A stretch of DNA of 64,000 nucleotides from an uncultured Bacteroidales bacterium (GTDB taxonomy: Bacteria > Bacteroidota > Bacteroidia > Bacteroidales > CAIWKO01). The notes under the pieces were generated by a model that had not been told where the DNA came from, searched no databases, and saw nothing but the letters and a program-made list of their open reading frames with translations. The position numbers were made by a program, and so were the translations under genes. Position 1 is the first letter of the stretch. Each line of letters opens with the position of its first letter. The DNA lies in assembly GCA_964585485.1 (NCBI GenBank), contig CAZPDS010000001.1, forward strand, positions 19,177-83,176, in the 5' to 3' direction. Below are positions 5,437 through 35,709 of the stretch, in pieces.

Positions 5437-6702
5437 TTAAAATCCCGCCATAAATCGCACAAGCAGTCTGAAAAGATCGCTGTACTCCGTTAGTGGCAAG
5501 CCCTGTGGCCGGTCGGCCGGGGTGTGGTATTCGCGCCATTCGGGTCCGGTGGTGTAGATAAAGAACGACGGCACGCCTTTTTTGTAAAACCAGTAATGAT
5601 CGCTGTTGGCCGATTCGCCGCGGGGTCCCACTGCTTTCAGTAAACTATCGCTACGGTTGATTCCTTCGAGTTTTTCGAAGGCTTGTTTCAGGGCGTTTCC
5701 ATTCACCACACGAATTCCTTCACTGCCGGTGCCCACCATATCGAGGTTCAGCAGGAATTTAATAGACTCCAGCGGAAACAGGGGGTGTTCCGCATAGTAT
5801 TCCGATCCCAGTAAACCGGCCTCTTCCCCGCTAAAAAACAGAAAAGCCACCGAGTAGTCCGGTGCATTTTCCGGTTTGGAATAATGGCGCGCCAGATCCA
5901 GCAACATGGCGCAACCACTGGCGTTGTCGTTGGCTCCGGGGAAACAAAGCCCGGCCCCCATATGTCCAACATGATCATAATGGGCTGTGAACACCAGGAA
6001 GGAATCGGGTTGTTGGCGGCCTTTGATAAATGCCACCACGTTCTGTGTCAGGTAATTTTTCAGGAAAACACTTTCAATGTCGACGGTCACCGTTTTCGTT
6101 TTCGTGGGAATTTTTTCGCGTGGAACATAGACACTGAAGCCCTTCGCAAGTTCTCTTCCGCTGGAAACACCGAATACCTGCCGCGATTTGCCGGCATAAA
6201 TGAGGCCGCGTGCCGCCGCCAGCTCCGGCCGCTTAAGATCAGCAAAACCCGTATCCAGAATCAGTACGGTGTTTTCGAGGTTTTTCTTTTGAAAGTTCTT
6301 AAGCGCCCGGGGATTGCTCAGGCTGTTTTTAGTCAGCCACAGGGTTTTAAACGTCCCGGATACCGTTGGTGAGGAACTGCCGATCATATAGTCGTCGGCC
6401 GGTTGGAGGAGGCCGTCATTAAGCGAAAGACGGAGCCGTCCGGGAAACGTATTGAGGCTGATTGGAAAATGCTGAAAATAACTGCTGGCAAGTGGCAGGG
6501 CGGCTGTTTTCTCCAATTCCGCGGCAATAAATGCGGCGGCGATGTGATCGCCCTGGTAAACGTAGCCCCGTCCGTGCATACGGCAACTGGCCAGGGAATC
6601 AATCATCCGGCGTGCATAGGCCGTATCCTGAGCCTTTAGTTGAAATGGCTGCCCCAAGGTCAACAAACTCAGGAAAACAAGCAGGAGGGAACATTTTTTC
6701 AT
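5437..6702 (-). CDS. M28-family zinc aminopeptidase (secreted)
   Basis: ORF 5437..6798 trimmed to the internal ATG at 6700-6702, which gives signal peptide MKKCSLLLVFLSLLTLGQPFQLKAQ. M28 metal-ligand motifs HYDHVG, NDNASG, FFSGEEAGLLGS, NLDMVG. Confidence 0.85.
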   Translation of the reverse strand: MKKCSLLLVFLSLLTLGQPFQLKAQDTAYARRMIDSLASCRMHGRGYVYQGDHIAAAFIAAELEKTAALPLASSYFQHFPISLNTFPGRLRLSLNDGLLQPADDYMIGSSSPTVSGTFKTLWLTKNSLSNPRALKNFQKKNLENTVLILDTGFADLKRPELAAARGLIYAGKSRQVFGVSSGRELAKGFSVYVPREKIPTKTKTVTVDIESVFLKNYLTQNVVAFIKGRQQPDSFLVFTAHYDHVGHMGAGLCFPGANDNASGCAMLLDLARHYSKPENAPDYSVAFLFFSGEEAGLLGSEYYAEHPLFPLESIKFLLNLDMVGTGSEGIRVVNGNALKQAFEKLEGINRSDSLLKAVGPRGESANSDHYWFYKKGVPSFFIYTTGPEWREYHTPADRPQGLPLTEYSDLFRLLVRFMAGF

Positions 6703-6734
6703 GTGAAATACTGGTAGAAGTGAATAGCGCAGAT

Positions 6735-7544
6735 TTAGGCAAAGCGGCGGGAGACAAACACCCGTAAACGTTTGAGCCCGTCTGAGGTGTCTTTCCACTG
6801 CAAGACCGACTTCAACTCATCAAGAATGCGGCTGGCGCTCTCGATGTTCTCCTGGCGGTTGATTTCATCAATTGCGGTTTGGTAATCGCTCATACTCCCG
6901 CTGAAAAGCTCGTTGATAAAGACAAAGCGGTCGTTAACCCCGATGCCGGTGCGCAGGTCGGCAATGGGTTTCAGTAAGGTATCTGCCAGGGTCTTATCTT
7001 TTTTATCATGGCTGATTCGGTCGTTATAACTTTGAGCGTTGTTTTTAAATTTATCGGCCAGGGTGTTGCTTTCTGTTTGTGCAAAAAGGTCGGCTGTTGC
7101 GGATTTTTTTCCGGACTTTTTCAGCGGGGGTTCCACCTTCATCACGGGTTCGCTCCTGGGTTCTTCCACCGGGGGGGGTTCAACGGCCAGGACGTGCAGA
7201 TCGGGGGCGGGTTCTTCCTTTTCAGGGATAAGGTTTATCGCCGGGGTTCGTTCTTCCGCCGGAGGCTGAGTTTCGGGTTCCGGATCTGCGACAATGGTGA
7301 CCAGTTCCCGGGCTTCCGTATCGTCGGATGAGAGCGGATCCTGTTCCTGGCGGGGTTCCGGACGGAACTGTTGATTGAGTTTATTCAACTCCATCAGGTC
7401 TTCGTACAGGCGTCGCACATTCGACATCAGGATATCGATTTCGATTTGGGGGATTTTACCTTCATAGGCCTGAATGAGCCGGCTTTGCTCGTGAATCATG
7501 CCGATCACGTGATCAATATCGTTGAAAACAATGTACTTTGCCAT
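6735..7544 (-). CDS. Hypothetical protein with acidic Pro/Glu-rich central linker
   Basis: ORF 6735..7586 trimmed to MAKYIVFNDIDH (ATG at 7542-7544). Structured N- and C-terminal parts (C-terminal LRTGIGVNDRFVFINELFSG) flank a PEPETQPPAEE...PPPVEEP low-complexity linker. No family recognised. Confidence 0.6.
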   Translation of the reverse strand: MAKYIVFNDIDHVIGMIHEQSRLIQAYEGKIPQIEIDILMSNVRRLYEDLMELNKLNQQFRPEPRQEQDPLSSDDTEARELVTIVADPEPETQPPAEERTPAINLIPEKEEPAPDLHVLAVEPPPVEEPRSEPVMKVEPPLKKSGKKSATADLFAQTESNTLADKFKNNAQSYNDRISHDKKDKTLADTLLKPIADLRTGIGVNDRFVFINELFSGSMSDYQTAIDEINRQENIESASRILDELKSVLQWKDTSDGLKRLRVFVSRRFA

Positions 7545-7615
7545 AAAAATGAATTTCTCAATAAAACGTAAAGCAAAATAAATCATTTTATGATTGCCGA
7601 AAACCGTTTTTAAAA

Positions 7616-7623
7616 TATCTTTG
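7616..7623 (+). promoter_or_regulatory. Candidate -7 promoter box TATCTTTG upstream of tdk
   Basis: TAnnTTTG match, about 43 nt upstream of the tdk ATG (7666). Confidence 0.4.
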
Positions 7624-7665
7624 CTGAGCGGGTCCCGGTATTTGACCTAAAGTCCTGATAGTACA

Positions 7666-8250
7666 ATGTTTTTAGAAAACACCTCCCTTGAAAAACGCAA
7701 ACCCGGATGGATTGAAGTCATCTGCGGATCCATGTTTTCGGGTAAAACCGAAGAACTAATTCGTCGTTTACGCCGGGCCGTTTATGCAAAACAACGGGTG
7801 GAAATCTTCAAACCGGAGATTGACGTCCGCTACGACGACGAAAAGGTGGTTTCGCACAACGAAAACGCCATCAACAGTACGCCGGTTCAAAATGCGTCGC
7901 GCATATTGTTGTTGCTGAACGATGCCGAAGTTGTGGGAATAGATGAGGCGCAGTTCTTTGATGCGGAACTGCCAGCGGTTTGCAACGAACTGGCCGCCCG
8001 CGGAATCCGGGTGATCGTGGCGGGTCTCGACATGGATTATCTTGGGAAGCCCTTTGGCCCCATGCCGCAATTGATGGCAATGGCCGAATACGTTACCAAA
8101 GTTCACGCAATCTGCCTTGGATGCGGCGGTCAGGCCCATTATTCCTACCGGAAAATCGCCAACGACAAGCTGGTATTGCTGGGTGAAACCGACAGTTATG
8201 AACCGCTCTGCCGGCAGTGCTTCAACAATCGCATGAACGGAACGAAATAA
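7666..8250 (+). CDS. tdk: Thymidine kinase
   Basis: 194 aa. P-loop [24 protein letters not shown], and C-terminal zinc-ribbon cysteines (CLGCGG...CRQC). Confidence 0.95.
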
Positions 8251-8276
8251 AAAAACCGGCTTTCGCCGGTTTCATA
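8251..8276. terminator. Bidirectional intrinsic terminator between convergent tdk and the lipoprotein gene
   Basis: AAAAAA-CCGGC-TTTC-GCCGG-TTT. GC stem flanked by an A-run and a T-run. Stronger for the minus-strand gene (six U after the stem). Confidence 0.6.
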
Positions 8277-8280
8277 TTCT

Positions 8281-8658
8281 TTAGTTGATAAAGACTGTTT
8301 TATAGGTGGTCTCGCCGGGCACCAGGCGCACGGTGGCCTGACCGGTAAGTGCATCTTCGATGGGGCCGGTGCCGGTATTGGTATCTTTGACGGCGTCGAC
8401 TTTAAGAATGGCTTCCAGCTTAAAAGCGGCTTTAAACATCCCCGCATCATCTGTTTTTCCTTCAATACGGATATCTTCGTATTGTCCGCCAATCACCACG
8501 TCCGCGGCCGGAACCACCCGGTTGGTGTCAGATTGATATTTAACGGTAATCACACAAGGGATTTCCGTATTTTCCTTTTTACAGGCCGGAAGTAACATCA
8601 CGGCAACAAGGCCGGCGATGAGGATTACGGGCAGACAATTACGCAAGAATGATTTCAT
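8281..8658 (-). CDS. Hypothetical small lipoprotein
   Basis: ORF 8281..8697 trimmed to MKSFLRNCLPVILIAGLVAVMLLPACKK (lipobox LPAC). No family recognised. Confidence 0.6.
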   Translation of the reverse strand: MKSFLRNCLPVILIAGLVAVMLLPACKKENTEIPCVITVKYQSDTNRVVPAADVVIGGQYEDIRIEGKTDDAGMFKAAFKLEAILKVDAVKDTNTGTGPIEDALTGQATVRLVPGETTYKTVFIN

Positions 8659-8756
8659 AACACGGGTTTTATTTATCTTTGTGTAAAATTTGAACATTTT
8701 ACGCCTTTAATACAAAAAGGTTTTAAAAGTTAGCAAATATATTAAAAGAATTTGTT

Positions 8757-9404
8757 ATGAAAAAAAAGATCTGCGCAATTTTCGGAATTTTCATTTTAAC
8801 TTTTACCACCGTGAGTGCACAAATTATTGACGGAAAACCTGAACGTATGTTTTTGATTACCACAAGTATGGGTAATATTAAGTTAAAGTTGTACAACGAC
8901 ACCCCCCTGCATCGGGATAACTTTGTAACGATGGTTCAATCGGGCTGGTACAACAACTCGAATTTTCACCGTGTGATTAACCAGTTTATGATCCAGGGTG
9001 GTTGGAACAGTGAGGGCAAGGAAGATCCGGGGCACACTGTACCGGCGGAATTTATTGACGAGCATTTTCATGTGAAAGGCGCGTTGGCTGGAGCCCGCAT
9101 GCCGGACAATGTAAATCCGGAAAAAGCATCTTCGGGCAGTCAGTTCTACATTGTTCAGGGCCGGGTGTTTACTGACAAGGAACTGGATGAAATTCAGAAA
9201 CGTACGGGTCATTCGCTGACCCCGCAACAACGCGAGGTCTATAAGACCATCGGGGGTACTCCACATCTTGATGGCGCCTACACCGTTTTTGGTGAAGTAA
9301 CGGAAGGACTGGAGGTTATTGACAAAATTGCCGCCGTGGCCACGCGTTCGGATGGTCACCCCAAAACGGAGGTTATTTTCAGCATTAGCGAAATTACCGA
9401 GTAG
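8757..9404 (+). CDS. Cyclophilin-type peptidyl-prolyl cis-trans isomerase (exported)
   Basis: 215 aa. Signal peptide, then cyclophilin motifs FHRVINQFMIQGG and SSGSQFYIV. Confidence 0.9.
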   Translation: MKKKICAIFGIFILTFTTVSAQIIDGKPERMFLITTSMGNIKLKLYNDTPLHRDNFVTMVQSGWYNNSNFHRVINQFMIQGGWNSEGKEDPGHTVPAEFIDEHFHVKGALAGARMPDNVNPEKASSGSQFYIVQGRVFTDKELDEIQKRTGHSLTPQQREVYKTIGGTPHLDGAYTVFGEVTEGLEVIDKIAAVATRSDGHPKTEVIFSISEITE

Positions 9405-9419
9405 CTTCTTTATACGCCT

Positions 9420-10442
9420 ATGAAAGAACAGATTGAACGGATCGGTGCCGAGGTAAAAGCCTTTACGGCCAGCACGGCCGCCGAGTTGGAGCAGTTTCGG
9501 ATCAAATTATTGGGGAAAAACGGCAGTCTCACGTCGCTTTTCGCTGAATTTAAGAATGTGGCTCCGGAACAAAAAAAGGAAGTTGGGCGCCTGCTCAATG
9601 AACTCAAAAACACGGTACAGGAGCGACTGGATCACTTCCGCGAAAGCATGCAAGCGCAGCCCACGGAAAAGAATGATCAGATCGACCTCAGCCTTCCTTG
9701 CCTGCACCAGCCGGCCGGAACCCGCCATCCAATTTCACTGGTTCGCAGCGAAATCATCCGTCTTTTTTCGAATATTGGCTACACTGTAGCCGAAGGTCCT
9801 GAAATTGAAGATGATTTCCATAATTTCTCGGCATTGAATTTTCCACCGGAACATCCGGCGCGGGATATGCAGGACACCTTTTTCATAGAGCAAAATCCTG
9901 ATATAGCGCTCCGTACACATACCTCGTCGGTTCAGGTCCGCATCATGGAAAACAATCAGCCCCCGATTCGGATAATAGCACCCGGACGGGTTTACCGTAA
10001 CGAAGCGATTTCGTCGCGTGCACATTGCTTCTTCCATCAAATTGAAGGCTTGTACATTGACCGCAATGTTTCGTTTGCTGATCTCAAGCAAACCTTGCTG
10101 TATTTTGCCCAGGAGATGTTTGGTCAGGATACCAGCATACGCTTGCGGCCCTCCTATTTCCCCTTCACCGAGCCCTCGGCCGAAATGGATATTTCGTGTA
10201 AAATCTGTGGCGGATCCGGCTGTTCCATGTGTAAAAAAACAGGCTGGGTCGAAATCCTTGGCTGTGGAATGGTAGACCCCAATGTGCTGGAAAACTGTGG
10301 TATAGACAGTAAAGAGTATACCGGATTTGCCTTTGGAATGGGCGTAGAACGTATTACCAATCTCAAGTACCAGGTTAAAGATCTCCGCTGGTTTTCAGAG
10401 AATGATGTCCGCTTCCTGCGGCAGTTTGCGCCGGTTATTTAA
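9420..10442 (+). CDS. pheS: Phenylalanine--tRNA ligase alpha subunit
   Basis: 340 aa. Class II aaRS motifs (HPARDMQDTFF, RTHTSSVQVR, GFAFGMGVERI). Confidence 0.95.
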   Translation: MKEQIERIGAEVKAFTASTAAELEQFRIKLLGKNGSLTSLFAEFKNVAPEQKKEVGRLLNELKNTVQERLDHFRESMQAQPTEKNDQIDLSLPCLHQPAGTRHPISLVRSEIIRLFSNIGYTVAEGPEIEDDFHNFSALNFPPEHPARDMQDTFFIEQNPDIALRTHTSSVQVRIMENNQPPIRIIAPGRVYRNEAISSRAHCFFHQIEGLYIDRNVSFADLKQTLLYFAQEMFGQDTSIRLRPSYFPFTEPSAEMDISCKICGGSGCSMCKKTGWVEILGCGMVDPNVLENCGIDSKEYTGFAFGMGVERITNLKYQVKDLRWFSENDVRFLRQFAPVI

Positions 10443-13400
10443 GCTGTTTCCTCAGGCAGTTCGGGGGCTTGCGGCAACTCAAAACAAAACATAGCGCCTT
10501 CGCTTTCGCGTGAAACAAACCAGATGTGTCCGCCATGGCCTTCAATAATGTTTTTTACCATGGCCAGACCCAGGCCCATACCCTCCGATTTGGTGGAAAA
10601 ATTGGGGACGAAAATGCGTGATTTTTGAACCTCCGGAATGCCCGGTCCGTTGTCGGTAACGCACACCCGCACCCAGCCTGCATCGGCGCGAACGCTCACC
10701 TCTATCCGACCCTTCGGATCTCCATCAATGGCTTGCACCGAATTGGTCAGAAGGTTGACCATCACCCTGATCATCTGTTTATTATCCGCGAGAACAAAAA
10801 CGCCGTTTTCATGTGCGTCGCTGAAAACGATCGGTGTTGCCGATCCCGAAAAAGTGGTAATGGCAGTGTGAATACAAGCCACCAGATCAATGCGTTGAAG
10901 TTCCGATTTTGGCATTTTTGCAAAATCCGAAAAGGCGGTTGCAATGGCCGATAAGGAATCAATTTGCTCAATCAGTGTGCGTGAAAAACGCTGCAACTTC
11001 TCTTCCCAGCCCGGACTGTTTTCCTTCCAGGCTTTTTCGAGGTATTGAACACTCAGTTTCATCGGTGTTAGCGGATTCTTGATTTCATGAGCTACCTGCT
11101 TGGCCATTTCCCTCCAGGCGCTTTCCCGTTCCGATTTAGCGAGCAATTCAGCACTTAAGGCCAATTCATCTATCATGCGGTTGTATTCCATCACCAGGTT
11201 GCTGATTTCATCATCCTGACGGCTCCATTCAATTTTTTCGTTACGTCCCCCCAGACGCACCCGGCCGATTTTGGCCCGTATCACATTCAGTGGCCGGGTC
11301 ATGCGGCCCGCGATTATCAAGGCGATAACAATGGCAATGGCAATCAGAAAAACATAAATATTGATGAAGGTCATCATGAAGAGCGACAATTCTTGCTTCA
11401 GTTCATTTTCACGTGCAAAATACGGCAGGTTCAGATAGGCCCTTAACTGATTATCGTTGGTGTAAAATGGAAGGTAAGCCGAATAATATTCCAACCCCCC
11501 GATACGCTCCTGCTGAATAAAGATGGTTTTCTTGTTGAAATTTAATTCCTTATAGGCCTTAGGATTCATACAGGGCGAGAGTAAGCCTTCCTGAAAAATC
11601 TGCGGTCTGGAGGTAGAAACCAGCTTACCGCTCAGGTCGTAGAGATTTATATCGGTAAAAAAAACATTTGAAAACTTAACCAGCCACAGGGCCAGCATAT
11701 TCTCCACTTCCGGACTAATGGTATCGTAATCCGCCAGTTTCGATTGAAGCTCAATTTGTATAGATAAGGCCTTCTCGCTGAGATTATCACTATTCTTATT
11801 CTCATTCAAATTCCGAATGTAATAATTCATTGATATTCCAATCAAAACAAAGGATATCAATATGATAGCAATCATAGAAAGTTGCAGTCTGTTTTTAAAG
11901 TTCAAGCGTAACTGACTGATTTTAAACGGAAAGCGAACCACAAGAAAGAAAAGAAGTATGAAAAGGGCAAAAAACAGAAACAGTAGGGAAAAAGGGGCAA
12001 CACGGTCGAGTAGACTCTCTTCTTTCTTGCTGATTATAATGTTATTAAGCCTATTATCACGATAAAAGAGGTGATTGTATCCGGCCTTGGAATAAAAGCC
12101 CAGATTTCCGCAGGCCGTGTCGTCCGGCTCTTGGTTCATGCTGTAATAGAACTTTCCGTAACCATCGACCAGAGCGCCGTTGCGATAACGCGCATAGGAA
12201 TATTCCGACAGGTCGGTATTTAAAAAGATCTTTTTATCAATCAGGAGCTCAGGATAGCCTAAACCCTTGGGAATAAACTTGGAATAGAGCTCTATAAAAG
12301 CGGTCAGGGTTCGCGCAGAATCCCTGGGAAAGTCCAGCATACTTAAATAACTATTGCCGCCGGTACCATAGTTGAGCATAAACAGGGAGGGACAAGAGGT
12401 TTCACGCCCATAATTGCGCTGAATATCCTGAAAGTAATCGCCGCAACTAATATTTAAGAGGGCGGGGCGAATAAAAAGGCTGTCGGACTGATCACATAAG
12501 GTTATCTGAACCTGATACTTATCCCAGTAACCGCGGAAGTAGGTTCGCAGGATGTAGTCGACGACCCCGGCATCGCTGTTCTCGTATTGCTGAATTAAGG
12601 TCTGAAGTTGCGGGTCGAAATAAATGTCCTTTACAATTTTTTTGAACAAGTATTCAGCCACCGGATCCTGGCTGGCCGATAATTTCTGCGCCAGGGATTT
12701 TCGCTTCTCTTGTTCTTTGAAGTCGTTGCTATCGTTTAACACGAACGTACAAAGTGCCGAAAAGAAAATGATACTAAACAGCAATCGAGAAAACAGAAAA
12801 CGGTATCGTCCCCTTTCACGGAAATACCAAAACACAAACATAAATACCAAATAGCTTAATGTCACTATTATATCTTCCGGATTTTGTTGACGTTGGAAGA
12901 AATAAAACAAGAGCATAGCGGCGGCCGCGGGGACGAAAAAGTCAGGCTTAGTGGTTGAAAGGCTGGCCATTATGCTAATTAAACGAATCGTTACCAGCAC
13001 AAGCGCCAGCACCAACGCGGCCATGATTATAAAACCTAAAAGGCTGTAATAATTTAAATTAAAGACATTATTAACGGTATAAGGAATCACCGAATCCAGC
13101 ACCATACTACGGATCGTACGAAAGGAAAAAACGAAAAAGAGGCCCTGTGTAAAAACGAGTACCGCCACGATAAGCCCGTTCCAGGGTCTTTTGATCCCTT
13201 TGTATGCGCCGGGTGTAAAGCGGAAGTACTTATAGAAAACCCAGGAGAGAATCAACAGCAGCAAAACATTCACCATCAAGTCGCCAAAAGAGGGTAAAAG
13301 TTCGCTCGAAGCATAGTTTAGCGGGCTAAAAAGTAAGGAATGGTGCAGAAAAGCAGGCACCTTATAGACAAACATAAAGAATCGCAGGATCAGCACATCC

Positions 13401-26350: not shown

Positions 26351-27604
26351 TTATTTGGTTTCCGAGGGGTTGTTAATCCGTCCCATGAACAAGATGTTAT
26401 CGTACTTGTTTTCTTTAAGGATCATAATAAACGGACGGTTCGCAATGAAGCCAGGGCGAACAATGGCGGTTTTCTGACGTATCACCACCGCGGTAGCAGC
26501 CGCGGCTTCGGTTCCCTTTTCATTGACATCCACAAAGGCTTTATGGATGACCTTATCGATCATCAGGTCCTTTTTCCCGTCCATACCTGAAAAATCAGCC
26601 TGCAGGCTAAAGGCTTCCGGCATCCCCATTTTCTTTAGTACGTCGGATAACTCCAGTTCGGAGGTGGTCTTAAACTTCGGTATCATCAGGTTTATGATTT
26701 CCGGTTTGAGGGCCTTCATCCATTCCGAATACTGAGCGGAGGTCAGTTTCTGCTCAAACGCACTAAACGAGACCTGGCGGGCGGGGAGCAATATAACCAG
26801 CGACATCGAACTGTCGGCATACGGAATCTCGGCAATCTGGAGATCTTCATCGCTATAGTACTTAAACACGGCATTGTCTTTCTTCATAAAAGGCACTTGC
26901 AGACTTTTGCCGTCGGGTAAAAAGAAACTGTGGGCCGACGTTAGCTTTTCATCAAAAGCTGCCGACCAGGAGCCTTTAAAATAAACGGCATTCACAAGCA
27001 CCATGCGGGCCAGCTGATTAATCATCCCTTGCGGAATGAGGTTCTGAATGCGGTCATTGGTCTTTTTGGCCACCCAATCATTGATTAACAGACGGGATTT
27101 CTCCAGTTCCTTTTTGAAATCCACCAATTGAACCCCCGCCTTGTAATTTTGCTTCATCAGGCCCATATAACTATCGAGAAAGTCAAAATCACGCTGTGCA
27201 AAAACAGCCTGGGCGGTGGTCATCTCAACCGAATCGCCGTTGTTAAGTCCCTCGATGTAGGCCAGCAAATCGCGTACTTTCGGATGAAAGGCCTGTTGAT
27301 CGCGGTCAAAATGTAAAACCTTGCTCATCTGGGCTTCGGTTTCGCCACGGGCTCCGGCATAGGTCATGGCCAGTGCAGTTGAAATACTATACGGACTAAA
27401 AAAAACATTCTGGTCAAACGTGGAAATTTCGCGGTAGAGTTCCAGCGCAAACTGGTTATTCCCGGCGATGAGGGCCGGGTCGGGTTGCTCAATAGGCCGT
27501 AGCGCCGGTTCGGAAGGCGTCACCGTGGAGGTAGAAACCGATTTTTGATGGCAGGCCAACAGGCTGCTCAATACTACTGCTACAAGGATCAAATGTGCTT
27601 TCAT
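26351..27604 (-). CDS. Serpin-family protease inhibitor, lipoprotein
   Basis: 417 aa. Lipobox SLLAC. Serpin core motifs (SPYSISTALAMTYAGARGET, FIANRPFIMIL). Inhibitory-type hinge EKGTEAAAATAVVIRQK-T. Aligning it to the antithrombin/alpha1-antitrypsin hinge puts P1 at Lys378 (codon 26471-26473). Confidence 0.9.
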   Translation of the reverse strand: MKAHLILVAVVLSSLLACHQKSVSTSTVTPSEPALRPIEQPDPALIAGNNQFALELYREISTFDQNVFFSPYSISTALAMTYAGARGETEAQMSKVLHFDRDQQAFHPKVRDLLAYIEGLNNGDSVEMTTAQAVFAQRDFDFLDSYMGLMKQNYKAGVQLVDFKKELEKSRLLINDWVAKKTNDRIQNLIPQGMINQLARMVLVNAVYFKGSWSAAFDEKLTSAHSFFLPDGKSLQVPFMKKDNAVFKYYSDEDLQIAEIPYADSSMSLVILLPARQVSFSAFEQKLTSAQYSEWMKALKPEIINLMIPKFKTTSELELSDVLKKMGMPEAFSLQADFSGMDGKKDLMIDKVIHKAFVDVNEKGTEAAAATAVVIRQKTAIVRPGFIANRPFIMILKENKYDNILFMGRINNPSETK

Positions 27605-27615
27605 AGGGTGAATGC

Positions 27616-29445
27616 TTAGTTTTCGTTGGGATGAAAATATGCAAAGATAAGGCCGGCCTTGCTATTGCCGACCACGGCCGCCAGTTCCTCCTGGCTGGCT
27701 GCGCGGATGCGGGCGACCGAACCCAGCGCCGTTAGAGCCTTCCGGGCCACCGCATCACCAACCCCCCGTATGCCGGTAAGCTCGGTGCGCAAGGTGCCTT
27801 TTTCCCGTTTTTTCCGATGATGCGTGATACCAAAACGGTGCGCTTCATCGCGCATATGCTGAATAACCCGCAGGGTCTCCGATTTCTTGTCGAGGTACAT
27901 GGGCAAAGAATCGTACGGGTAATAAATCTCCTCCAGTTTTTTGGCTATCCCGATGACCCCCATCCGACCATACAGACCGATTGACTCCAGGGCCTCCACA
28001 GCGGCGCTTAACTGGCCTTTTCCGCCATCAACGACGAGGAGTTGAGGGAAGGGCTTGTCTTCGTCCAAAAGTCGCGTATAACGCCGTGTAATGACTTCAG
28101 CCATGGAGGCAAAATCGTTGGGCCCTTCCACGGTCTTAATATTAAAGTGCCGGTACTCGCTTTTTGCGGGCCGGCCATTTTTAAACACGATCAGCGCCGC
28201 CACCGGGTATTCGCCCTGGATATTGGAGTTATCAATGCATTCAATGATTTCCGGTAGCTCCTTCAGCCGCAAGTCCTGTTTCATCTTTTCCAAAATGCGC
28301 CGTGTATGGCGTTCGGGGTCGGCCAGTTCGCGTTGCTTTTCCTTTTCGGCTTTATAATGGATGGCGTTGCGCAGGGAAAGCTCGACCAACATTTTCTTGT
28401 CGCCGCGCTGCGGCACCTGCAAGCTAACGCCCGGAATCTCGAGGCCGGGATCAAAAGGTACCAGCACTTCGCTATGGTCGCTTAAACCACGGGTACGGAA
28501 TTCCGCAATAGCCAGCAGCAGCATCTCGTCCGGATTTTCATCGAGTTTTTTCTTCAGCTCCACGGTTTGCGACTGTACCACAGCACCATTCACCACCTTC
28601 ATAAAATTAACCCAGGCCGAATGCACATCGTCAACCAGGGTAAAAACATCCACCTGATGAATGTTCGGATTCACCACAACCGACTTGCTTTGGTAACGCT
28701 CGAGGAGGCTCAGCTTTTCCTTGTATTCCTGCGCCTGCTCGAAACGGTATTCCGAAGCGGCCTCCAGCATCGCTTTTCGCAACACCTGAATCACCGGCCC
28801 CAGGTGCCCCTTGATTAGTTCCCGGATGTGCCGAACATTTTCTTCATAACTTTCGGCGGTCTGCCGGCCTTCGCATGGCCCCAGGCAGTTTCCAATCTGG
28901 TATTCCAGGCAAACCTTATAGCGGCCGGCGCGAATATTGGCCGGCGAAAGGTTGAGTTTACAAGTACGCAGTGGATATAACTTACGCACCAGCTCCAGCA
29001 GATTATGCATACTGCGCACCGAAGCGAAGGGACCAAAATAGTGGGAGCCGTCACGCCCCAGCGTACGCGTACTGTAAATGCGCGGGAATTCTTCTTTCTT
29101 AATACAAATCCAGGGATACGTCTTGTCGTCTTTCAACAAAATGTTGTACCGCGGCTGATGCTTTTTAATAAGCGTGTTCTCCAACAACAAGGCGTCGTAC
29201 TCCGTATTTACAACAATAGTACGGATGTCGGCAATCTTACGAACCAGCATCCGTACCTTCCCGCTCAGGCCACTGTCCTTGTTGAAATACGAATGAACCC
29301 GCTTCGTCAGGCTCTTGGCCTTACCCACATAAAGCAACTGATCCTGCTGATCATAAAACTGGTAAACACCCGGTGCATCCGGCAGCGTTTTCAGCAGATT
29401 TTTCAGATGAGTTTCAGAAGCGGAAGCTGGATCGTTCATAAACAA
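27616..29445 (-). CDS. uvrC: Excinuclease ABC subunit C
   Basis: 609 aa. GIY-YIG N-terminus (GVYQFYDQQDQLLYVGKAKSLTKRV), UVR domain, endonuclease V-like domain and C-terminal HhH. The start could be the third codon (29439). Confidence 0.95.
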   Translation of the reverse strand: MFMNDPASASETHLKNLLKTLPDAPGVYQFYDQQDQLLYVGKAKSLTKRVHSYFNKDSGLSGKVRMLVRKIADIRTIVVNTEYDALLLENTLIKKHQPRYNILLKDDKTYPWICIKKEEFPRIYSTRTLGRDGSHYFGPFASVRSMHNLLELVRKLYPLRTCKLNLSPANIRAGRYKVCLEYQIGNCLGPCEGRQTAESYEENVRHIRELIKGHLGPVIQVLRKAMLEAASEYRFEQAQEYKEKLSLLERYQSKSVVVNPNIHQVDVFTLVDDVHSAWVNFMKVVNGAVVQSQTVELKKKLDENPDEMLLLAIAEFRTRGLSDHSEVLVPFDPGLEIPGVSLQVPQRGDKKMLVELSLRNAIHYKAEKEKQRELADPERHTRRILEKMKQDLRLKELPEIIECIDNSNIQGEYPVAALIVFKNGRPAKSEYRHFNIKTVEGPNDFASMAEVITRRYTRLLDEDKPFPQLLVVDGGKGQLSAAVEALESIGLYGRMGVIGIAKKLEEIYYPYDSLPMYLDKKSETLRVIQHMRDEAHRFGITHHRKKREKGTLRTELTGIRGVGDAVARKALTALGSVARIRAASQEELAAVVGNSKAGLIFAYFHPNEN

Positions 29446-29472
29446 ATACTACATGGCAAAGATAACACAAAC

Positions 29473-29509
29473 AAAAAAAGGGGAACCGCTGATGGCACTT
29501 CCCCTTTTT
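29473..29509 (-). terminator. Intrinsic terminator closing the TonB-receptor/MbnP-like/OsmC operon
   Basis: AAAAAAA-GGGGAA-(13-nt loop)-TTCCCC-TTTTT. On the minus strand the stem is followed by a 7-T run. Lies 18 nt downstream of the OsmC stop. Confidence 0.7.
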
Positions 29510-29526
29510 GGTTTAAAAACACAAAA

Positions 29527-29922
29527 TCAGGGTTGCTGTACCGATTTTACCTCCACCACCGGCGGCGCGGAAAAATGTTGTTTCACCTTACAAAGCGAAG
29601 CTACAGATACCAGGGATGCTACGTATTTTTCGGGAAAGTCTTTCGGAACCTGGATTTCCAGGCCAACATACGTCGCCATGCCCCTTGCGTCAAATTCGTG
29701 CTTCTGCACAATTTTGATCCCTTCCGTAGAGATTCCCCGCTGATCGCAGAAACCTTTTACATAGATGCCGGCACAGGTGGCCAGCGACGCCAGAAACAGC
29801 TCAAACGGCGTAACGGCTGCGTCATTTCCACCGCCCTGCACAGGCTGATCGGTTTTCACAACATGCTGCCGAACACGGGCGTTCACGCCCTTGCTTCCTT
29901 CAAAGAAAACTTCGATTTCCAT
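29527..29922 (-). CDS. OsmC/Ohr-family thiol peroxidase-like protein (no signal peptide)
   Basis: 131 aa. FELFLASLATCAGIY and SLCKV carry the two cysteines typical of the OsmC family. Confidence 0.85.
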   Translation of the reverse strand: MEIEVFFEGSKGVNARVRQHVVKTDQPVQGGGNDAAVTPFELFLASLATCAGIYVKGFCDQRGISTEGIKIVQKHEFDARGMATYVGLEIQVPKDFPEKYVASLVSVASLCKVKQHFSAPPVVEVKSVQQP

Positions 29923-29937
29923 AAAATATAGTTTTAA

Positions 29938-30741
29938 TTAATAATTTACCGCGCCAATGGTGAAAACATCCACCCCATTTTCCTTAACCTTCTGCATCGC
30001 CGCCTGATTCTGCATGATATAGCTGCCCCACACATTGTGATCCCACACGTGCGGTGTTTCAAACCAGCTTTCCACATTCATGCGAATTTCAATAGTCGTA
30101 GTCGCATCCTCATTCACCGTAAAGGATTCGTTGCTAAGATTCACCTCAAAATAATTCTGTACAAAGCCGGTAATGGAATCCACATTAACGACCCCGCTGG
30201 CGTATATCTGCCCTATTCCGAGGTGAAAATCAAAGGGAACAACCTGGTTCGCCGTATCCTTCCATTTTCCGTTCAGCTTCATGTAGTGATAGCCCCCACC
30301 CAGAAATTCCGGCCAAAACATATTGCTCTCGGGAGGGTTCACAAACATGTACGATTGGTTGCTGGCTTCGCTGATTCCAAAGATAAAGCTGATGGACGTG
30401 TACGTGCCGCTGGTAATCGGATCCACCACATTCCACATCAGCGTCGCGGGGATGTCGGTGTCCACATAGTGAATATCGTCCCAATCATCAATGCGCAGGG
30501 TAGAGCCATCACCGGCGTGCAGCACCACGTCTGACACGAAGTACTGAATCTCGTTGACCAGGTACTCGTTGCCGGCGGCATTCAGATACATCAGCGAGTC
30601 CATCACCAGAGGTTCACCATTCACGGTGTGCGTAAATTTCAAATTGATTTTGCCCGTTTCCGGAGCCGGCGGAGGCGGATCTTTTTTACAGCCCGCCAAA
30701 ACGGTGACCAAAATAAGGCTGAAGCCCAGCAATCTTTTCAT
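29938..30741 (-). CDS. MbnP-family-like lipoprotein (putative periplasmic metal-binding protein)
   Basis: ORF 29938..30798 trimmed to MKRLLGFSLILVTVLAGCKK (lipobox). Motifs AAGNEYLVNEIQYFVSDVVL, NMFWPEFLGGGYHYMKLNGKW and FDFHLG match my recollection of Bacteroidota MbnP-family proteins. Needs HMM confirmation. Confidence 0.6.
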   Translation of the reverse strand: MKRLLGFSLILVTVLAGCKKDPPPPAPETGKINLKFTHTVNGEPLVMDSLMYLNAAGNEYLVNEIQYFVSDVVLHAGDGSTLRIDDWDDIHYVDTDIPATLMWNVVDPITSGTYTSISFIFGISEASNQSYMFVNPPESNMFWPEFLGGGYHYMKLNGKWKDTANQVVPFDFHLGIGQIYASGVVNVDSITGFVQNYFEVNLSNESFTVNEDATTTIEIRMNVESWFETPHVWDHNVWGSYIMQNQAAMQKVKENGVDVFTIGAVNY

Positions 30742-30784
30742 CTTTTTCAGGAATTTTACAAGAGGCCCAACGCCCCCTCTTTCA

Positions 30785-31159
30785 TTAATAGGGAACAACC
30801 CCCGAAACCGTTACAGGCATGGTATTGTCGTTGGTTCGCGAAGCCTGTTTGTAAATCTTTCCATCCACATACACCCGCACCTGAACATAAGAATCCGGTG
30901 TAGTGTCCAGCACGGAAATATAAACGATGTCGCCGGATTCCGCCAACCACGAAGAGACAACAATTTTATCGCTCTTGCTTTGGGTGGAATACGTGGCGGT
31001 TTGAACCACCGGAGCTTCGTTGGAATAACGTGCCGTAAAGCCCGTTTCCGAGTTGGTGACCATATACGAAACCGTATGGCTGTCTTCTTTCTCACAGGCT
31101 GCGAGCCACAGGAACAGCGGGATCAGCAAAAATATTAAACGCAGGTTTTTCATATTCAT
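30785..31159 (-). CDS. Hypothetical small lipoprotein
   Basis: 124 aa. Signal peptide with lipobox LAACEKED. Lies 4 nt downstream of the TonB-dependent receptor stop. No family recognised. Confidence 0.6.
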   Translation of the reverse strand: MNMKNLRLIFLLIPLFLWLAACEKEDSHTVSYMVTNSETGFTARYSNEAPVVQTATYSTQSKSDKIVVSSWLAESGDIVYISVLDTTPDSYVQVRVYVDGKIYKQASRTNDNTMPVTVSGVVPY

Positions 31160-31163
31160 CCGC

Positions 31164-33317
31164 TTAAAAATTAAACATTACATTGGCGTAAAGCACACGG
31201 CCTGGTTCGTAGAGTCTTCCGGTGGAACCGATCATTTTCCGATTGAGGTGCTCGTAGTAGGCCGTGTTCAGCAGGTTGTTCACGCCACCGCTTAAGGTGA
31301 GGAAGGACTTATACTTGTACGTAAGGCCCAGGTTCAATAATACAAAACCCGGTGTCGTTTTTTCGTAGAAAGCTTCAGAGACATGCCCCTGGTCCAACAC
31401 CATCCTGCAGGCCACGCGGGGAACCAACTTGCCATTAAAGAACTTGTAGTAAGCCGAAACGTTTATTTCCAGCGGGGGAATTTCAGACAAAGCGTCATTG
31501 GTCAATACTTCTTCGCCGATTACCTGCTGGCTGACAATTTTCGTGGGATCGAGCAGCTGCTTGGTCACCGAAGAGATTGTTGCATAGGTATAGGCGGCGG
31601 AAATTCGTCCGCCCGGTTTCCAGCTTTCGGGTGTGCGATACGCCAGTTCAAAACCAGTGAAATAGGCGGTTCCGGCATTGTAAAATTCTTTCACCCCGAG
31701 CACATTAGCCGTAAGCGGTTTTTGAACCGACGGCGGCAAACGCCGTCCGCTGATAAATCCTTCAACAATAGAGTAAAATACATTGACCTCTGCTGTCCCG
31801 GCTTTCTCATGATAGTATTTAAACCCAAGGTCCGCCTCGTTGTTTGTTTCGGGCTTCAATTGGGGATTTCCCAGGTATTCATAATTATCGTAACCCACCG
31901 GTAACAGGATAATAAAGCGTTCCAGCATATTCGGACTACGGGTGCCACGGCCCAGGGAAAAACTCAGGGCATAATGATCACCCCAGCGTTTGGTGACGCC
32001 GCCACTAAAACTAAGGTTCAGAAAATTACTGGTGGTGGTATCGTTATACAACAAGACCGGGGGTGGGGTTCCGGTACCATAGAGAACAATCGGACCTGAA
32101 GTAGCGTGATTCTGGTCGAGGCGCAGGGTGCCCACCACATCCCAGGTAGTACCCAGCATGGTTTTAAATTCACCATATAGCCCCAGATTATACATGCTGG
32201 CGTCGTTCCATAAGGCTTCCGTTTTAGTCGGAATCATGCCGTTCATGGGCGCTTGCATGATCATGGTTTTCACCCGGTCGCCATCCTTGGCAATCAGCAT
32301 GAAATCGCCACCCAAAAACAGGATGTACTTATCCTTGAAATTTAAATCCACCCCACCGCGCACTCCCAGCGTAGCCGCCGTTACATCCGAAACCGCCACC
32401 GCGGTATCGGAGTTCGCACGCGATTTATTATCCATTACGTGATTAACCACGGTATAGCTGGCCTTCAGGTTGGCCCCGCTAAACACCCCGTTGTGGCCCT
32501 TGGTAACGTAAGCCAGGGAAAGGGAGTTGGTGAGATCCGAACGTTCGTCCATCTGGAGTGCCGGAAAACGTACATTGCTGTGTTGCGCACCCATGTAGGA
32601 AAGGAGTACCTGATGTTTTTTGGCCGGGGTAAACCCCAGCTTGGCCGAATAACTCGTCTTTTCAAAGGAAGAAGAATATTGCGTGCCGTTCCCGTCATCG
32701 TAATTACCATATTGCATGCGATTGGCACTCATCAGAAAATAAACAAACCGATTACCACCCCGAAGGTCGACATGCTGTTTATTCCCGTTCCAGTTACTTT
32801 CGTAGCCCACTGAAGCACGGCCGTGTACTTCAAATTTCGCGTAGGGTTGCGGTTGCAGCGTTATCAGGTTCACCACACCTCCAAAAGCCGGTCCGTAGCG
32901 TAAAGCAAAGGGGCCCTTGATGACTTCCATCTGCTCGATGTCGTCAATGTCAACATGCGAAGTGGTGGGGTCCATCCGGTTCGGACAGCCGCCTTCAATT
33001 CCGACCGCCCCGTTGATAAGGGTGAGTAACTGACTGAATTTAAAACCGCGCACCACCGGATCGATGTTGGCGCCCCCCTTTCGGAGCCCGGATACATTTG
33101 GTACACTGCGAAGAACCTCGCCAATATCGCGAACCGCCTCGTCGTCCAGAATGGATTTTAAAACCACCTGCTTTTGATACGGAATGCGTTTCAGGGCGCG
33201 GTCGATGACTTCCACCGGCCCAAGTTTAACGGTGTCGCCGATGCCCTGTGCCTGGGTAGCACTTCCTGCAAAGATCAGCAAGAGCCCGGCAAGAGAGAGC
33301 TTCCAAGTTGTATGCAT
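31164..33317 (-). CDS. TonB-dependent outer-membrane receptor
   Basis: ORF 31164..33359 trimmed to MHTTWKLSLAGLLLIFAGSATQAQ (ATG 33315-33317). Plug domain (VLRSVPNVSG, IDPVVRGF, IEQMEVIKGPFALRYGP), 22-strand-type barrel, and C-terminal aromatic ...YANVMFNF. Confidence 0.9.
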   Translation of the reverse strand: MHTTWKLSLAGLLLIFAGSATQAQGIGDTVKLGPVEVIDRALKRIPYQKQVVLKSILDDEAVRDIGEVLRSVPNVSGLRKGGANIDPVVRGFKFSQLLTLINGAVGIEGGCPNRMDPTTSHVDIDDIEQMEVIKGPFALRYGPAFGGVVNLITLQPQPYAKFEVHGRASVGYESNWNGNKQHVDLRGGNRFVYFLMSANRMQYGNYDDGNGTQYSSSFEKTSYSAKLGFTPAKKHQVLLSYMGAQHSNVRFPALQMDERSDLTNSLSLAYVTKGHNGVFSGANLKASYTVVNHVMDNKSRANSDTAVAVSDVTAATLGVRGGVDLNFKDKYILFLGGDFMLIAKDGDRVKTMIMQAPMNGMIPTKTEALWNDASMYNLGLYGEFKTMLGTTWDVVGTLRLDQNHATSGPIVLYGTGTPPPVLLYNDTTTSNFLNLSFSGGVTKRWGDHYALSFSLGRGTRSPNMLERFIILLPVGYDNYEYLGNPQLKPETNNEADLGFKYYHEKAGTAEVNVFYSIVEGFISGRRLPPSVQKPLTANVLGVKEFYNAGTAYFTGFELAYRTPESWKPGGRISAAYTYATISSVTKQLLDPTKIVSQQVIGEEVLTNDALSEIPPLEINVSAYYKFFNGKLVPRVACRMVLDQGHVSEAFYEKTTPGFVLLNLGLTYKYKSFLTLSGGVNNLLNTAYYEHLNRKMIGSTGRLYEPGRVLYANVMFNF

Positions 33318-33356
33318 GCAACGTAAATTTTTCAGTTCAATAAACTGTAATTTATA

Positions 33357-33364
33357 CAAAAATA
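33357..33364 (-). promoter_or_regulatory. Candidate -7 promoter box TATTTTTG upstream of the TonB-dependent receptor
   Basis: TAnnTTTG on the minus strand, about 40 nt upstream of the ATG. A CAGTT-N5-AACTG inverted repeat (33333-33347) lies between the box and the start codon. Confidence 0.45.
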
Positions 33365-33461
33365 CGGAAATATTTTGGAAATTCGCCTAAATGGCTGGTT
33401 CTAAATATTACCGGGCCTTACCGCTACGCCTGCCATGAGCCCGGAATGAGGATGGTTTGTT

Positions 33462-33929
33462 TTAGTTTGATTTCTTAACAATCCACCCCACCTGCATTAT
33501 TTCGGGTGTTTCCGGCAAGGGCATAATGTTCTGCACCGTGAAAAGATAATGGCCCTTTCGGGGAAAGGTGAAATCGCTGAGGTACTCAAAATTGATGTCC
33601 CATAAATCACCCGCACCCTCGCCCAGGAAGGATCCGTCTTTATCGCGGAGCATCAGGTCAAGATCGCGTGTTCGCGTTTCCCCGGAAGGGAAGGTTGAGT
33701 ATACGTTAACTTTGATGTTGGCAAAGGCATAATAGCTGGTGTGCCGGATCGCCAGCTCCACATCATAGGCCTGCAGCGTATCGTTGATCTCCACGTCAAA
33801 CGTGATCGCGTTTTCCCGTGCCCACCGGTACTGAGGAATGTCCATAAATTCCTGAAATACGCGTTGATCGCAGGAAATCAGAAACATGGTCAGGCTAAGC
33901 ACAAATAGAAGCGGCAGGATCTTTTTCAT
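33462..33929 (-). CDS. gldH: Gliding-motility lipoprotein GldH
   Basis: ORF trimmed to MKKILPLLFVLSLTMFLISCDQ (lipobox). ~155 aa. The pattern W..ENAITFDVEI.D....YDV.LAIRH...Y.F.N..V......P.G...T.......LRD..G.F.G.G.GDLW matches GldH as I remember it. Confidence 0.75.
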   Translation of the reverse strand: MKKILPLLFVLSLTMFLISCDQRVFQEFMDIPQYRWARENAITFDVEINDTLQAYDVELAIRHTSYYAFANIKVNVYSTFPSGETRTRDLDLMLRDKDGSFLGEGAGDLWDINFEYLSDFTFPRKGHYLFTVQNIMPLPETPEIMQVGWIVKKSN

Positions 33930-33997
33930 AAAACTTGGGATTAAAAGGAGCAATAGCAAATTAGACGTATTTTTACAAACGCATTGCACAAGGATTA

Positions 33998-34630
33998 TTG
34001 TTCATGACAAAAATAGCAAAACAAAAATACTACGTCGTTTGGAAAGGGGCAAAACCTGGCATTTACACCTCCTGGGACGAATGCCGGGAACAGGTGCATG
34101 GCACCGAAGGCGCCCTTTACAAGGCCTTCGATAGTTTGCCGGAAGCTGAAACCGCCTTTCGGGAAAAACCGCAAAAACATATCTATAAAAAAGATACAAA
34201 ACCATCCGTGGTCAGCAAATCCGCTATCATTCAGGACAGCATCAGTGTTGATGCGGCGTGGAATACGGTGAGTAAGGACATGGAATACCGTGGCGTTTAC
34301 ACCTGGAACGCGGAAGAAATTTTTCACCGGGGGCCCTTTCCTGACGGCACGAACAATATCGGGGAATTTTTGGCCCTGGTTCACGCCCTGGCGCTGCTGG
34401 AAAAAAATGGCAAAAAAACACCCGTTTATTCCGACAGCCGTACGGCCATAGCCTGGGTCCGGAATAAACGGGCGAATACGAAACTGGAACCTACTTCACG
34501 AAATGCCGAACTTTTCGATCTGATCGCCCGGGCCGAAAACTGGCTCAGGGAACACCCACTGAAGAATGCCGTTCTGAAATGGGAAACGGAATCGTGGGGC
34601 GAAATACCGGCGGATTTCGGGCGAAAGTAA
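33998..34630 (+). CDS. rnhA: Ribonuclease HI with N-terminal hybrid-binding (viroplasmin-like) domain
   Basis: 210 aa. N-terminal YYVVWKGAKPGIYTSWDECREQVHGTEGALYKAF. The RNase H core carries acidic residues in SVDAAW, NNIGEF, YSDS and IPADFG. Confidence 0.85.
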   Translation: MFMTKIAKQKYYVVWKGAKPGIYTSWDECREQVHGTEGALYKAFDSLPEAETAFREKPQKHIYKKDTKPSVVSKSAIIQDSISVDAAWNTVSKDMEYRGVYTWNAEEIFHRGPFPDGTNNIGEFLALVHALALLEKNGKKTPVYSDSRTAIAWVRNKRANTKLEPTSRNAELFDLIARAENWLREHPLKNAVLKWETESWGEIPADFGRK

Positions 34631-34635
34631 GCGCC

Positions 34636-34932
34636 TTAGTCGTTACACTTGCTAACGCACTCAAGAATGGTCGCCAGTGCCGAATGTTTCAGATAATAGA
34701 AAGTATTCTTGCCATCACGTTTGGATTCCAGAATACCCTTGCTTTTCAAAATGTTCAGGTGGTGCGAAGCCGCAGCCTGTTCAATTTTCAGCTTTTCGTA
34801 AATGGAAGTCACGTTCATCTTACCGTTGGTTTCTAATAAACCAATGATTGCGATCCGCATCGGATGAGCAATGGACCTCAGCTTGCCGGCTGCTGCGTCA
34901 AGCTTGTGCATGTCTAATTGAGTCTTTGCCAT
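34636..34932 (-). CDS. ArsR/SmtB-family winged-helix transcriptional regulator
   Basis: 98 aa. LRSIAHPMRIAIIGLL...NVTSIYEKLKIEQAAASHHLNILKSKGIL is a canonical ArsR HTH. Confidence 0.85.
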   Translation of the reverse strand: MAKTQLDMHKLDAAAGKLRSIAHPMRIAIIGLLETNGKMNVTSIYEKLKIEQAAASHHLNILKSKGILESKRDGKNTFYYLKHSALATILECVSKCND

Positions 34933-34962
34933 AATAATAAAAATTTAGTCAATTTTCCTTAA

Positions 34963-34976
34963 CAATAAATTTATTG
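34963..34976. promoter_or_regulatory. Perfect 14-bp palindrome CAATAAATTTATTG, candidate ArsR operator
   Basis: Read directly from the sequence. Lies 31-44 nt upstream of the ArsR-family start codon, in a 243-bp AT-rich intergenic region. Confidence 0.4.
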
Positions 34977-35175
34977 ATTTCGTGGTGCGTGTTGAAAGAT
35001 GGTTACTATGTTTAAACAATCATTTCCAAAAGTTTTCAAAAACAAAAGTACAAAGAAAATTAATAGTGTGACATAATTAACAGAATTTCTTTAACAACTT
35101 TTTTACTGTTTTTTAACGCGCTACTTGAATGGTGCGGGAAATTATTCAACGACTAATTAAAAATCAAGATAATAG

Positions 35176-35709
35176 CTAAATTGAAATGAGGGAAAAAATC
35201 TCAGCCCCGTCGATAATTTTTTTTCGTCCTTCCAGAAAAAGGAGTTCAATAATAAAGCTAACATACACTTTATTCACACCAAAATGATGGATCAGGTTCT
35301 GGGTGGCGTGAGCTGAACCCCCGGTAGCCAGGAGGTCATCGTGGAGCAGAACCACATCGCCGGGTTCCAGTGCGTCTTTGTGAATTTCCAACTGGCCTTC
35401 GCCGTACTCCAGGGTATAGGTTTCGGTAAAGGTATCGGCCGGCAACTTCCCGGGTTTTCGCACCGGTACAAAACCGGCACCCAGACGGTAAGCCAATACA
35501 CTACCGGCAATAAAACCGCGCGATTCAATGCCCACCACCTTGGTGATTCCCTTGTCCTTGTATTGCTCATACAAACGATCGATCACAAAGGCGAAAATCT
35601 CCGGACGCTTGAGGGCGGTCGTAATATCTTTAAACAGGATGCCGGGTTTCGGAAAATCAGGGACATCCCGTATTGCATCTTTTAGGTTTTGAATCGTTAC
35701 TTGAGACAT
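35176..35709 (-). CDS. apt: Adenine phosphoribosyltransferase
   Basis: ORF trimmed to MSQVTIQNLKDAIRDVPDFPKPGILFKDIT. PRPP motif VVLLHDDLLATGGSA. Confidence 0.92.
   Translation of the reverse strand: MSQVTIQNLKDAIRDVPDFPKPGILFKDITTALKRPEIFAFVIDRLYEQYKDKGITKVVGIESRGFIAGSVLAYRLGAGFVPVRKPGKLPADTFTETYTLEYGEGQLEIHKDALEPGDVVLLHDDLLATGGSAHATQNLIHHFGVNKVYVSFIIELLFLEGRKKIIDGAEIFSLISI

Follow-up and report, generated by a model that had tools for sequence, protein, structure and literature searches.

An operon of four co-directional genes on the minus strand of a 64,000-nucleotide (nt) stretch of DNA from an uncultured Bacteroidales bacterium (the window, positions 1-64,000, in whose numbering its features are given) is rather likely to encode a copper-acquisition system, with a di-haem MbnH enzyme that is either supplied in trans or dispensable and an OsmC-like protein that is loosely associated. 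As judged from sequence comparison, the locus is a lineage-specific variant of a known combination, an OprC-type receptor with an accessory pair of the MbnP/MbnH type. In the order of transcription, the genes encode a putative OprC-type TonB-dependent copper transporter of 717 amino acids (aa) with an ATG start (31164-33317), a small lipoprotein of 124 aa with the lipobox LAAC and a predicted MmpS-like β-sandwich (30785-31159), a divergent MbnP-family lipoprotein of 267 aa with the lipobox LAGC (29938-30741), and an OsmC-like protein of 131 aa as last gene of the unit (29527-29922). The coordinates, the common direction and the intergenic distances of 4, 43, and 15 nt reported in a first-pass annotation of this DNA were confirmed; databases call the small lipoprotein gene with a start at 31153 and a product of 122 aa versus 124 aa here.

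Pfam analysis of the receptor identified a Plug domain (PF07715) and a TonB-dependent β-barrel (PF00593), and no STN or other N-terminal signalling domain. The best homologue of solved structure was OprC from Pseudomonas aeruginosa (PA3790, PDB 6FOK) with an E-value of 5.9e-40, whereas the next TonB-dependent receptor followed at 3e-11. In OprC, C143, M147, H323, and M325 form the CxxxM-HxM copper site, which is reported to be highly copper-specific (PMC8610252). The first two of these residues align to the plug motif C111-P-N-R-M115 and the last two to the barrel motif H293-V-M295 of the window receptor, and the equivalents of C111, M115, H293, and M295 were invariant in 52 of 52 full-length receptors adjoining MbnP-like genes. 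With OprC as closest solved homologue and its four ligands conserved, the receptor is classed as an OprC-type importer of ionic copper with C111, M115, H293, and M295 as putative ligands.

The first-pass annotation had assigned the receptor to the MbnT type (methanobactin TonB-dependent transporter), which was not borne out. It shares with MbnT the position of a TonB-dependent receptor beside an MbnP-family gene but differs from it by its similarity to OprC with the ionic-copper site, by the missing STN domain, and by the absence of adjoining mbnABC genes; the operon is flanked by genes for GldH, RNase H, ArsR, and UvrC, and no metallophore biosynthesis genes were found within it. The architecture of plug and barrel is shared with OprC, and differences from OprC exist as well. 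The OprC family has been described as conserved in Proteobacteria (PMC8610252), whereas the window receptor derives from a member of the Bacteroidales and scored below the cutoff of its best NCBIfam match, TIGR01778 TonB-copper (250 versus 472 bits). Moreover, two lipoprotein genes come directly after its gene, whereas the gene downstream of oprC encodes the PepSY-type inner-membrane protein PA3789 (PMC8610252).

The 267-aa lipoprotein matched the MbnP family PF20243 with 95.8 bits (cutoff 27) over residues 29-230, covering profile positions 1-179 of 189, and contained the peptide blocks that the first-pass annotation had associated with MbnP. It scored only 27 bits against TIGR04052 (MbnP_like_WxW, 'four-Cys motif protein'; cutoff 140), the second Trp and the four Cys of which are absent. 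Its initial naming as MbnP-like thus stood by Pfam and by fold and failed by TIGR04052. An AlphaFold2 (AF2) model with a predicted local distance difference test (pLDDT) score of 83.5 was submitted to Foldseek, and the only matches with E ≤ 0.001 were the six chains of 7L6G (E 2.5e-7, probability 1.0). This entry and 6E1C are the structures of the MbnP/MbnH pair from Methylosinus trichosporium OB3b (Manesis et al. 2021, as summarised in PMC11951088). Because 7L6G was not retrieved when PDB sequences were searched with either the single 267-aa protein or a profile of 34 sequences, the link to MbnP was made via the fold search and a profile-profile alignment. For the latter, an MbnP from a Methylocystis methanobactin operon (plasmid) served to recover the 7L6G sequence, and a canonical MbnP profile was then built; hhalign aligned the Bacteroidales profile to it with a probability of 95.9% and an E-value of 5.6e-9.

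In this alignment, the canonical M-x-W-x-W-Q motif corresponds to M141-F-W143-P-E145-F; its Met and first Trp are retained, W143 is invariant, and at the second Trp position (145) most members of the subfamily have Glu or Asp. The canonical His-x-Gly aligns to H173-x-G175, the histidine of the canonical N-H-S motif is replaced by Gln, and the mature protein contains no Cys, leaving the invariant canonical Cys columns without a Cys counterpart. Within the subfamily, M141, W143, H152, H173, M221, and M243 vary hardly or not at all, with M141 and H173 aligning to an invariant canonical Met and His, and the window protein retains all 45 invariant residues of the subfamily. These patterns point to M141, W143, and H173 as a candidate metal site. 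The protein shares Pfam family and fold with MbnP from strain OB3b but, unlike the latter, it is a lipoprotein, and on its sequence features it is assigned to a distinct Cys-less, single-Trp MbnP subfamily. The most conserved stretch of the family, NPPExxMFWPEFLGGG (132-149), was the only part of the model with a pLDDT below 50; residues 132-149 may represent a mobile loop that is ordered by a partner or by metal.

In most relatives, the small lipoprotein gene lies between the receptor and MbnP-like genes. The 124-aa product belongs to no Pfam or NCBIfam family, and a profile search placed it in a family of 431 representative clusters with the motifs GDIVYIS, DGKIYKQ, and VTVSGxxPY and with no conserved Cys, His, or Met. 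Its AF2 model (pLDDT 88, ~97 in the mature part) retrieved MmpS5 as top Foldseek matches (9mvz_A, E 3.6e-4, and 8em5_A), the latter with a template modelling (TM) score of 0.74 (normalised to target) and a root mean square deviation of 3.3 Å. The MmpS family PF05423 was matched neither by the window protein nor by 20 homologues; one distant profile match (P0375) carries PF05423 with 28.2 bits versus a cutoff of 21. On the structural model, the protein has an MmpS-like β-sandwich fold. Like MmpS5 (PDB 8EM5, 9MVZ), which serves the mycobacterial siderophore exporter MmpL5, it would be a small accessory protein of a metal-related membrane transporter. It differs from MmpS5 by a lipobox anchor in place of the N-terminal transmembrane helix and by its partner, which is an outer-membrane receptor and not a pump of the resistance-nodulation-division (RND) type.

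The distribution of MbnH was analysed in related loci. A scan with one genome per species gave 80 loci, almost all of them titled Bacteroidales or Bacteroidota metagenome-assembled genomes and three titled Chlorobiota; together with the window and two closer metagenomic contigs, 83 loci were compared. The usual gene order was receptor, small lipoprotein, MbnP-like protein, and an MbnH-like di-haem protein of ~385 aa. The closest solved homologue of this di-haem neighbour was 6E1C (E 1e-48), ahead of cytochrome c peroxidases (1e-33) and also of MauG, and its homologues on Methylocystis plasmids are annotated as 'MbnH family di-heme enzyme' by the Prokaryotic Genome Annotation Pipeline. Sixty-nine of the 83 loci had enough flank to be informative; MbnH was located within 1 kb downstream in 48 and anywhere in the locus in 51 of these, and 18, the window included, were without it. 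The MbnP-like gene is followed by an MbnH-like di-haem gene in most relatives, as in the MbnP/MbnH system of strain OB3b, whereas the window contains neither MbnH nor methanobactin genes. A search of the 64 kb for open reading frames (ORFs) of at least 80 aa with a CxxCH motif returned only one spurious ORF, antisense within the RNase H gene; operon and window are free of haem-c genes, in agreement with the earlier statement that none of the four proteins has a CxxCH motif, and no MbnH was present in ~4 kb of further sequence past one window end.

In one subclade, a Bact_surface_Ig-like protein of ~214 aa is encoded between the MbnP-like and MbnH-like genes (L053 10784-11428; same position in L034, L039, L043, L044, L047, L060, L066, L074, and L079). 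In two other loci, cydA and cydB directly follow a receptor-MbnP pair on the same strand (L078 11030-13698, L051 11028-13696); both loci are without MbnH and without the small lipoprotein. Cytochrome bd oxidase is a copper-free terminal oxidase, and the pairing could therefore stem from a control by copper limitation. A plasmid of Chondrinema litorale (L166, NZ_CP111054.1) carries genes for a peroxidase, MbnP, a hypothetical protein, MbnP, and a peroxidase side by side (5989-10324), and these pairs of MbnP-family protein and cytochrome c peroxidase adjoin a TolC/RND-adaptor/ATP-binding cassette efflux cluster.

From the missing haem gene, the first-pass annotation had proposed an MbnH-independent variant. 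The MbnP-like protein would then bind copper without kynurenine, for example via Met141, His173, and the carboxylate of Glu145, and OsmC would be a functional partner in peroxide or redox handling. We consider this variant unlikely. About a quarter of the related loci have no MbnH within 10 kb, which would be in its favour, and the frequent Glu or Asp at position 145 would fit a carboxylate ligand; however, this residue is equally common in MbnH-linked proteins, and none of the alignment columns conserved by more than 90% in MbnH-linked MbnP-like proteins is lost in the MbnH-less ones. In both groups, M141, W143, P144, H152, H173, M221, W226, and M243 are (near-)invariant. With MbnH at most related loci and no loss of conserved residues in the MbnH-less copies, the proposal is unproven.

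A second locus was obtained from only two genomes, OY782882.1 (L001 and L019) and DAOQAT01 (L013 and L007), and in both of them it carries an MbnP-MbnH pair, one of the findings that the first-pass annotation itself had named as speaking against its proposal. L001 and L013 are receptor-MbnP loci without MbnH, whereas L019 and L007 have the order ExbB-ExbD-ExbD-TonB-MbnP-MbnH and no receptor. The co-occurrence of MbnH-less receptor loci and MbnP-MbnH loci in the same two genomes suggests a copper system divided between two loci, the second of which would supply MbnH in trans. At L019, the genes for ExbB-like protein, ExbD, ExbD, TonB, MbnP-like, and MbnH-like proteins span 6856-12036, and the order at L007 is the same.

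The OsmC-like protein was examined as the proposed partner. Its family assignment and the lack of a signal peptide, both noted initially, held: PF02566 was matched with 47.2 bits versus a cutoff of 27.5, and the protein is predicted to be cytoplasmic. Cys50, Cys59, and Cys111 are invariant among orthologues, C50 and C111 with the spacing expected of a peroxidatic/resolving pair. In these respects it resembles the OsmC/Ohr thiol-dependent hydroperoxidases, from which it differs by the third invariant Cys (C59) and by its great distance from solved OsmC structures (best E 0.006). In NCBIfam, it comes closest to the model for the OsmC domain of OsmC-YcaO fusions and to that for OsmC-related selenoproteins, and a thiol hydroperoxidase activity is presumed from family membership alone.

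OsmC follows MbnP in L081, L082, and L002 as it does in the window, and the order MbnP-OsmC-UvrC is kept; the identity of the MbnP-like proteins to that of the window is 84%, 71%, and 64%, respectively. The MbnP-OsmC arrangement is conserved only in these four genomes, the small clade of the window; in the subfamily, an MbnH-like gene is the usual neighbour. Adjacency across MbnP identities of 64-100%, and its survival in L082, where receptor and small lipoprotein are missing, would argue for OsmC as a functional partner in an MbnH-independent variant, but the four genomes share one syntenic block (GldH ... UvrC), and the adjacency may be inherited gene order. In L082, GldH, MbnP-like, OsmC, and UvrC genes are kept (9375-11250), with only a 165-nt spacer between the GldH and MbnP-like genes. 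In all of 80 metagenomic loci with members of the OsmC subfamily, the vicinity was free of genes for MbnP, the receptor, the small lipoprotein, and MbnH; the orthologues are usually flanked by methyltransferase and sugar-metabolism genes. A cytoplasmic OsmC could not act on a lipoprotein beyond the inner membrane, and it would be unable to replace MbnH because it is cytoplasmic and has no haem. The link of OsmC to the module is weak, and the protein is probably the product of a redox or stress gene whose association is loose and facultative and which is co-transcribed by position. OprC-type copper operons of Proteobacteria have been reported to include MbnPH-like genes and genes for peroxide detoxification (PMC9426467).

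Several observations weigh against the assignment as a copper-acquisition operon with MbnH in trans or dispensable and a loosely associated OsmC. The fold match to MbnP is moderate, with a TM score of ~0.48 and 12% identity, and the putative metal site lies within residues 132-149, the part modelled at a pLDDT below 50. Should kynurenine form from the second and not the first Trp of the canonical WxW motif, the subfamily would have Glu or Asp at that position. An MbnH acting in trans in the genome of the window would be an extrapolation from two other genomes, with 64 kb searched in the window. At 11 of the 83 loci, the same OsmC orthologue lay no more than 10 kb from the module, in at least six arrangements (upstream, downstream, convergent), where a rough estimate for a single-copy gene gives less than ~1 locus expected by chance. 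It was also commoner in MbnH-less loci, 7 of 25 compared with 4 of 58 (Fisher P = 0.015, a value that ignores shared ancestry), a distribution that would favour the MbnH-independent variant.

In the copper-acquisition mechanism that we favour, the OprC-type transporter would capture ionic copper at its conserved CxxxM-HxM ligands and move it over the outer membrane. The two lipoproteins, anchored in the outer membrane, would act with the transporter, either on the periplasmic side or, as their export signal is ambiguous, at the cell surface. The MmpS-fold lipoprotein, which has no conserved metal ligands, would probably be a scaffold or adaptor. The MbnP-like lipoprotein would most likely receive the copper at the Met141/Trp143/His173 site, with Trp143 possibly converted to kynurenine as suggested by the alignment to canonical MbnP. 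MbnH would either derive from a second ExbBD-TonB-MbnP-MbnH locus or not be strictly required. The OsmC-like thiol protein, co-transcribed by position, would probably provide redox protection in the cytoplasm and not a replacement of MbnH.

A more far-reaching version would be a Bacteroidales relay of OprC importer, MmpS-fold lipoprotein, and Cys-less, single-Trp MbnP as acceptor, free of MbnH in the clade of the window, with kynurenine dispensable and a dedicated, co-expressed OsmC; we regard it as improbable. A Bacteroidales module of OprC-like receptor, MmpS-fold lipoprotein, Cys-less MbnP, and MbnH was not found described in the literature searched, and searches for OprC with MbnH and for MbnP in Bacteroidota returned nothing relevant. 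If the relay existed, copper imported by OprC would have its missing acceptor in the MbnP-like lipoprotein, and the co-expressed OsmC-like thiol protein would manage the redox cost of copper entry.

That the operon is a decaying remnant is very improbable. According to this explanation, the clade would have lost MbnH (and L082, in addition, receptor and small lipoprotein), the MbnP-like protein would be on its way out, and OsmC would merely be the next housekeeping gene. The absence of MbnH from the whole clade, the reduced locus in L082, and the housekeeping character of the syntenic block (OsmC, UvrC, GldH, RNase H, ArsR) are in line with decay, but all four ORFs are intact, the MbnP-like protein has kept its 45 invariant residues and the receptor its four copper ligands, and copies that are identical or nearly so are present in several metagenome assemblies independent of each other. 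The slimmest chance is given to the import of a non-copper cargo, that is another soft metal or a metallophore complex with a non-copper ligand on the MbnP-like protein: the scores below the TIGR01778 and TIGR04052 cutoffs and the missing WxW and four-Cys motifs would agree with it, but the CxxxM-HxM site with its reported copper specificity is invariant here, the operon holds no metallophore biosynthesis genes, and the receptor has no STN domain.

The transcription signals of the operon are located on the minus strand as well. A Bacteroidota-type -7 promoter box, TATTTTTG (TAnnTTTG), lies at 33357-33364 as first annotated, 40 nt upstream of the receptor ATG, and in L081 and L082 a TAnnTTTG box occupies the same alignment position ahead of the equivalent genes. 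Taken by itself, the motif shows only mild enrichment, with 62 matches in the window versus 45 expected. A CAGTT-N5-AACTG inverted repeat is present in the leader (33333-33347); as it is not conserved in L081, the relative with 84% identity, it is probably due to chance and was rejected as an operator. Between the MbnP-like stop and the osmC start, 15 nt apart, there is no TAnnTTTG box. The unit is closed after osmC by a convincing intrinsic terminator, the GC-rich hairpin and U-run at 29473-29509 that had been recognised from the start (-21.8 kcal/mol, z = -3.6; 0 of 200 shuffles equally stable). It was found by direct folding, the scan for sigma-70 and terminator consensus sequences having missed its interrupted stem. 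L081 and L082 also have a hairpin with U-run after OsmC, beyond which a TAnnTTTG box for uvrC is located in both; in the window, this box was identified by motif match as TATCTTTG at 29457-29464 (minus strand). No Rfam family scored above threshold in 28500-35500.

Upstream of gldH, a gene on the plus strand (33998-34630) encodes an RNase H that carries a Cauli_VI (RNase H1 hybrid-binding) domain at its N-terminus, and downstream of uvrC a lipoprotein-type serpin of 417 aa is encoded on the minus strand (26351-27604); synteny of both is kept in L082. An ArsR/SmtB-type helix-turn-helix protein of 98 aa (window 34636-34932, minus strand; L081 1439-1735; L082 8350-8646) is 100% identical in the three genomes, whereas the DNA is 82-92% identical with every difference synonymous, which points to unusually strong purifying selection; the MbnP-like proteins encoded near it are 71-84% identical. 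This gene was rejected as regulator of the operon, as it is confined to the three syntenic relatives and no other module has it nearby.

The domain assignments of the first-pass annotation are for the most part correct, but the wider Bacteroidales module is the more useful result of this analysis, which does not establish independence of MbnH in the window and supports only a weak link to OsmC. Ionic copper uptake in Gram-negative bacteria and the acceptor step after OprC are poorly understood, and the periplasmic partner of OprC was called unidentified in the OprC study (PMC8610252). At the locus described here and in its ~80 relatives, an OprC-type receptor with an intact site is paired with two dedicated lipoproteins and usually with an MbnH-like enzyme, which makes these proteins candidates for the acceptor step. 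Chondrinema litorale, a cultured Cytophagales strain, could serve as an experimental model for MbnPH of Bacteroidota, and the natural contrast between loci with and without MbnH could be used to test whether MbnP-family proteins need kynurenine for copper binding.

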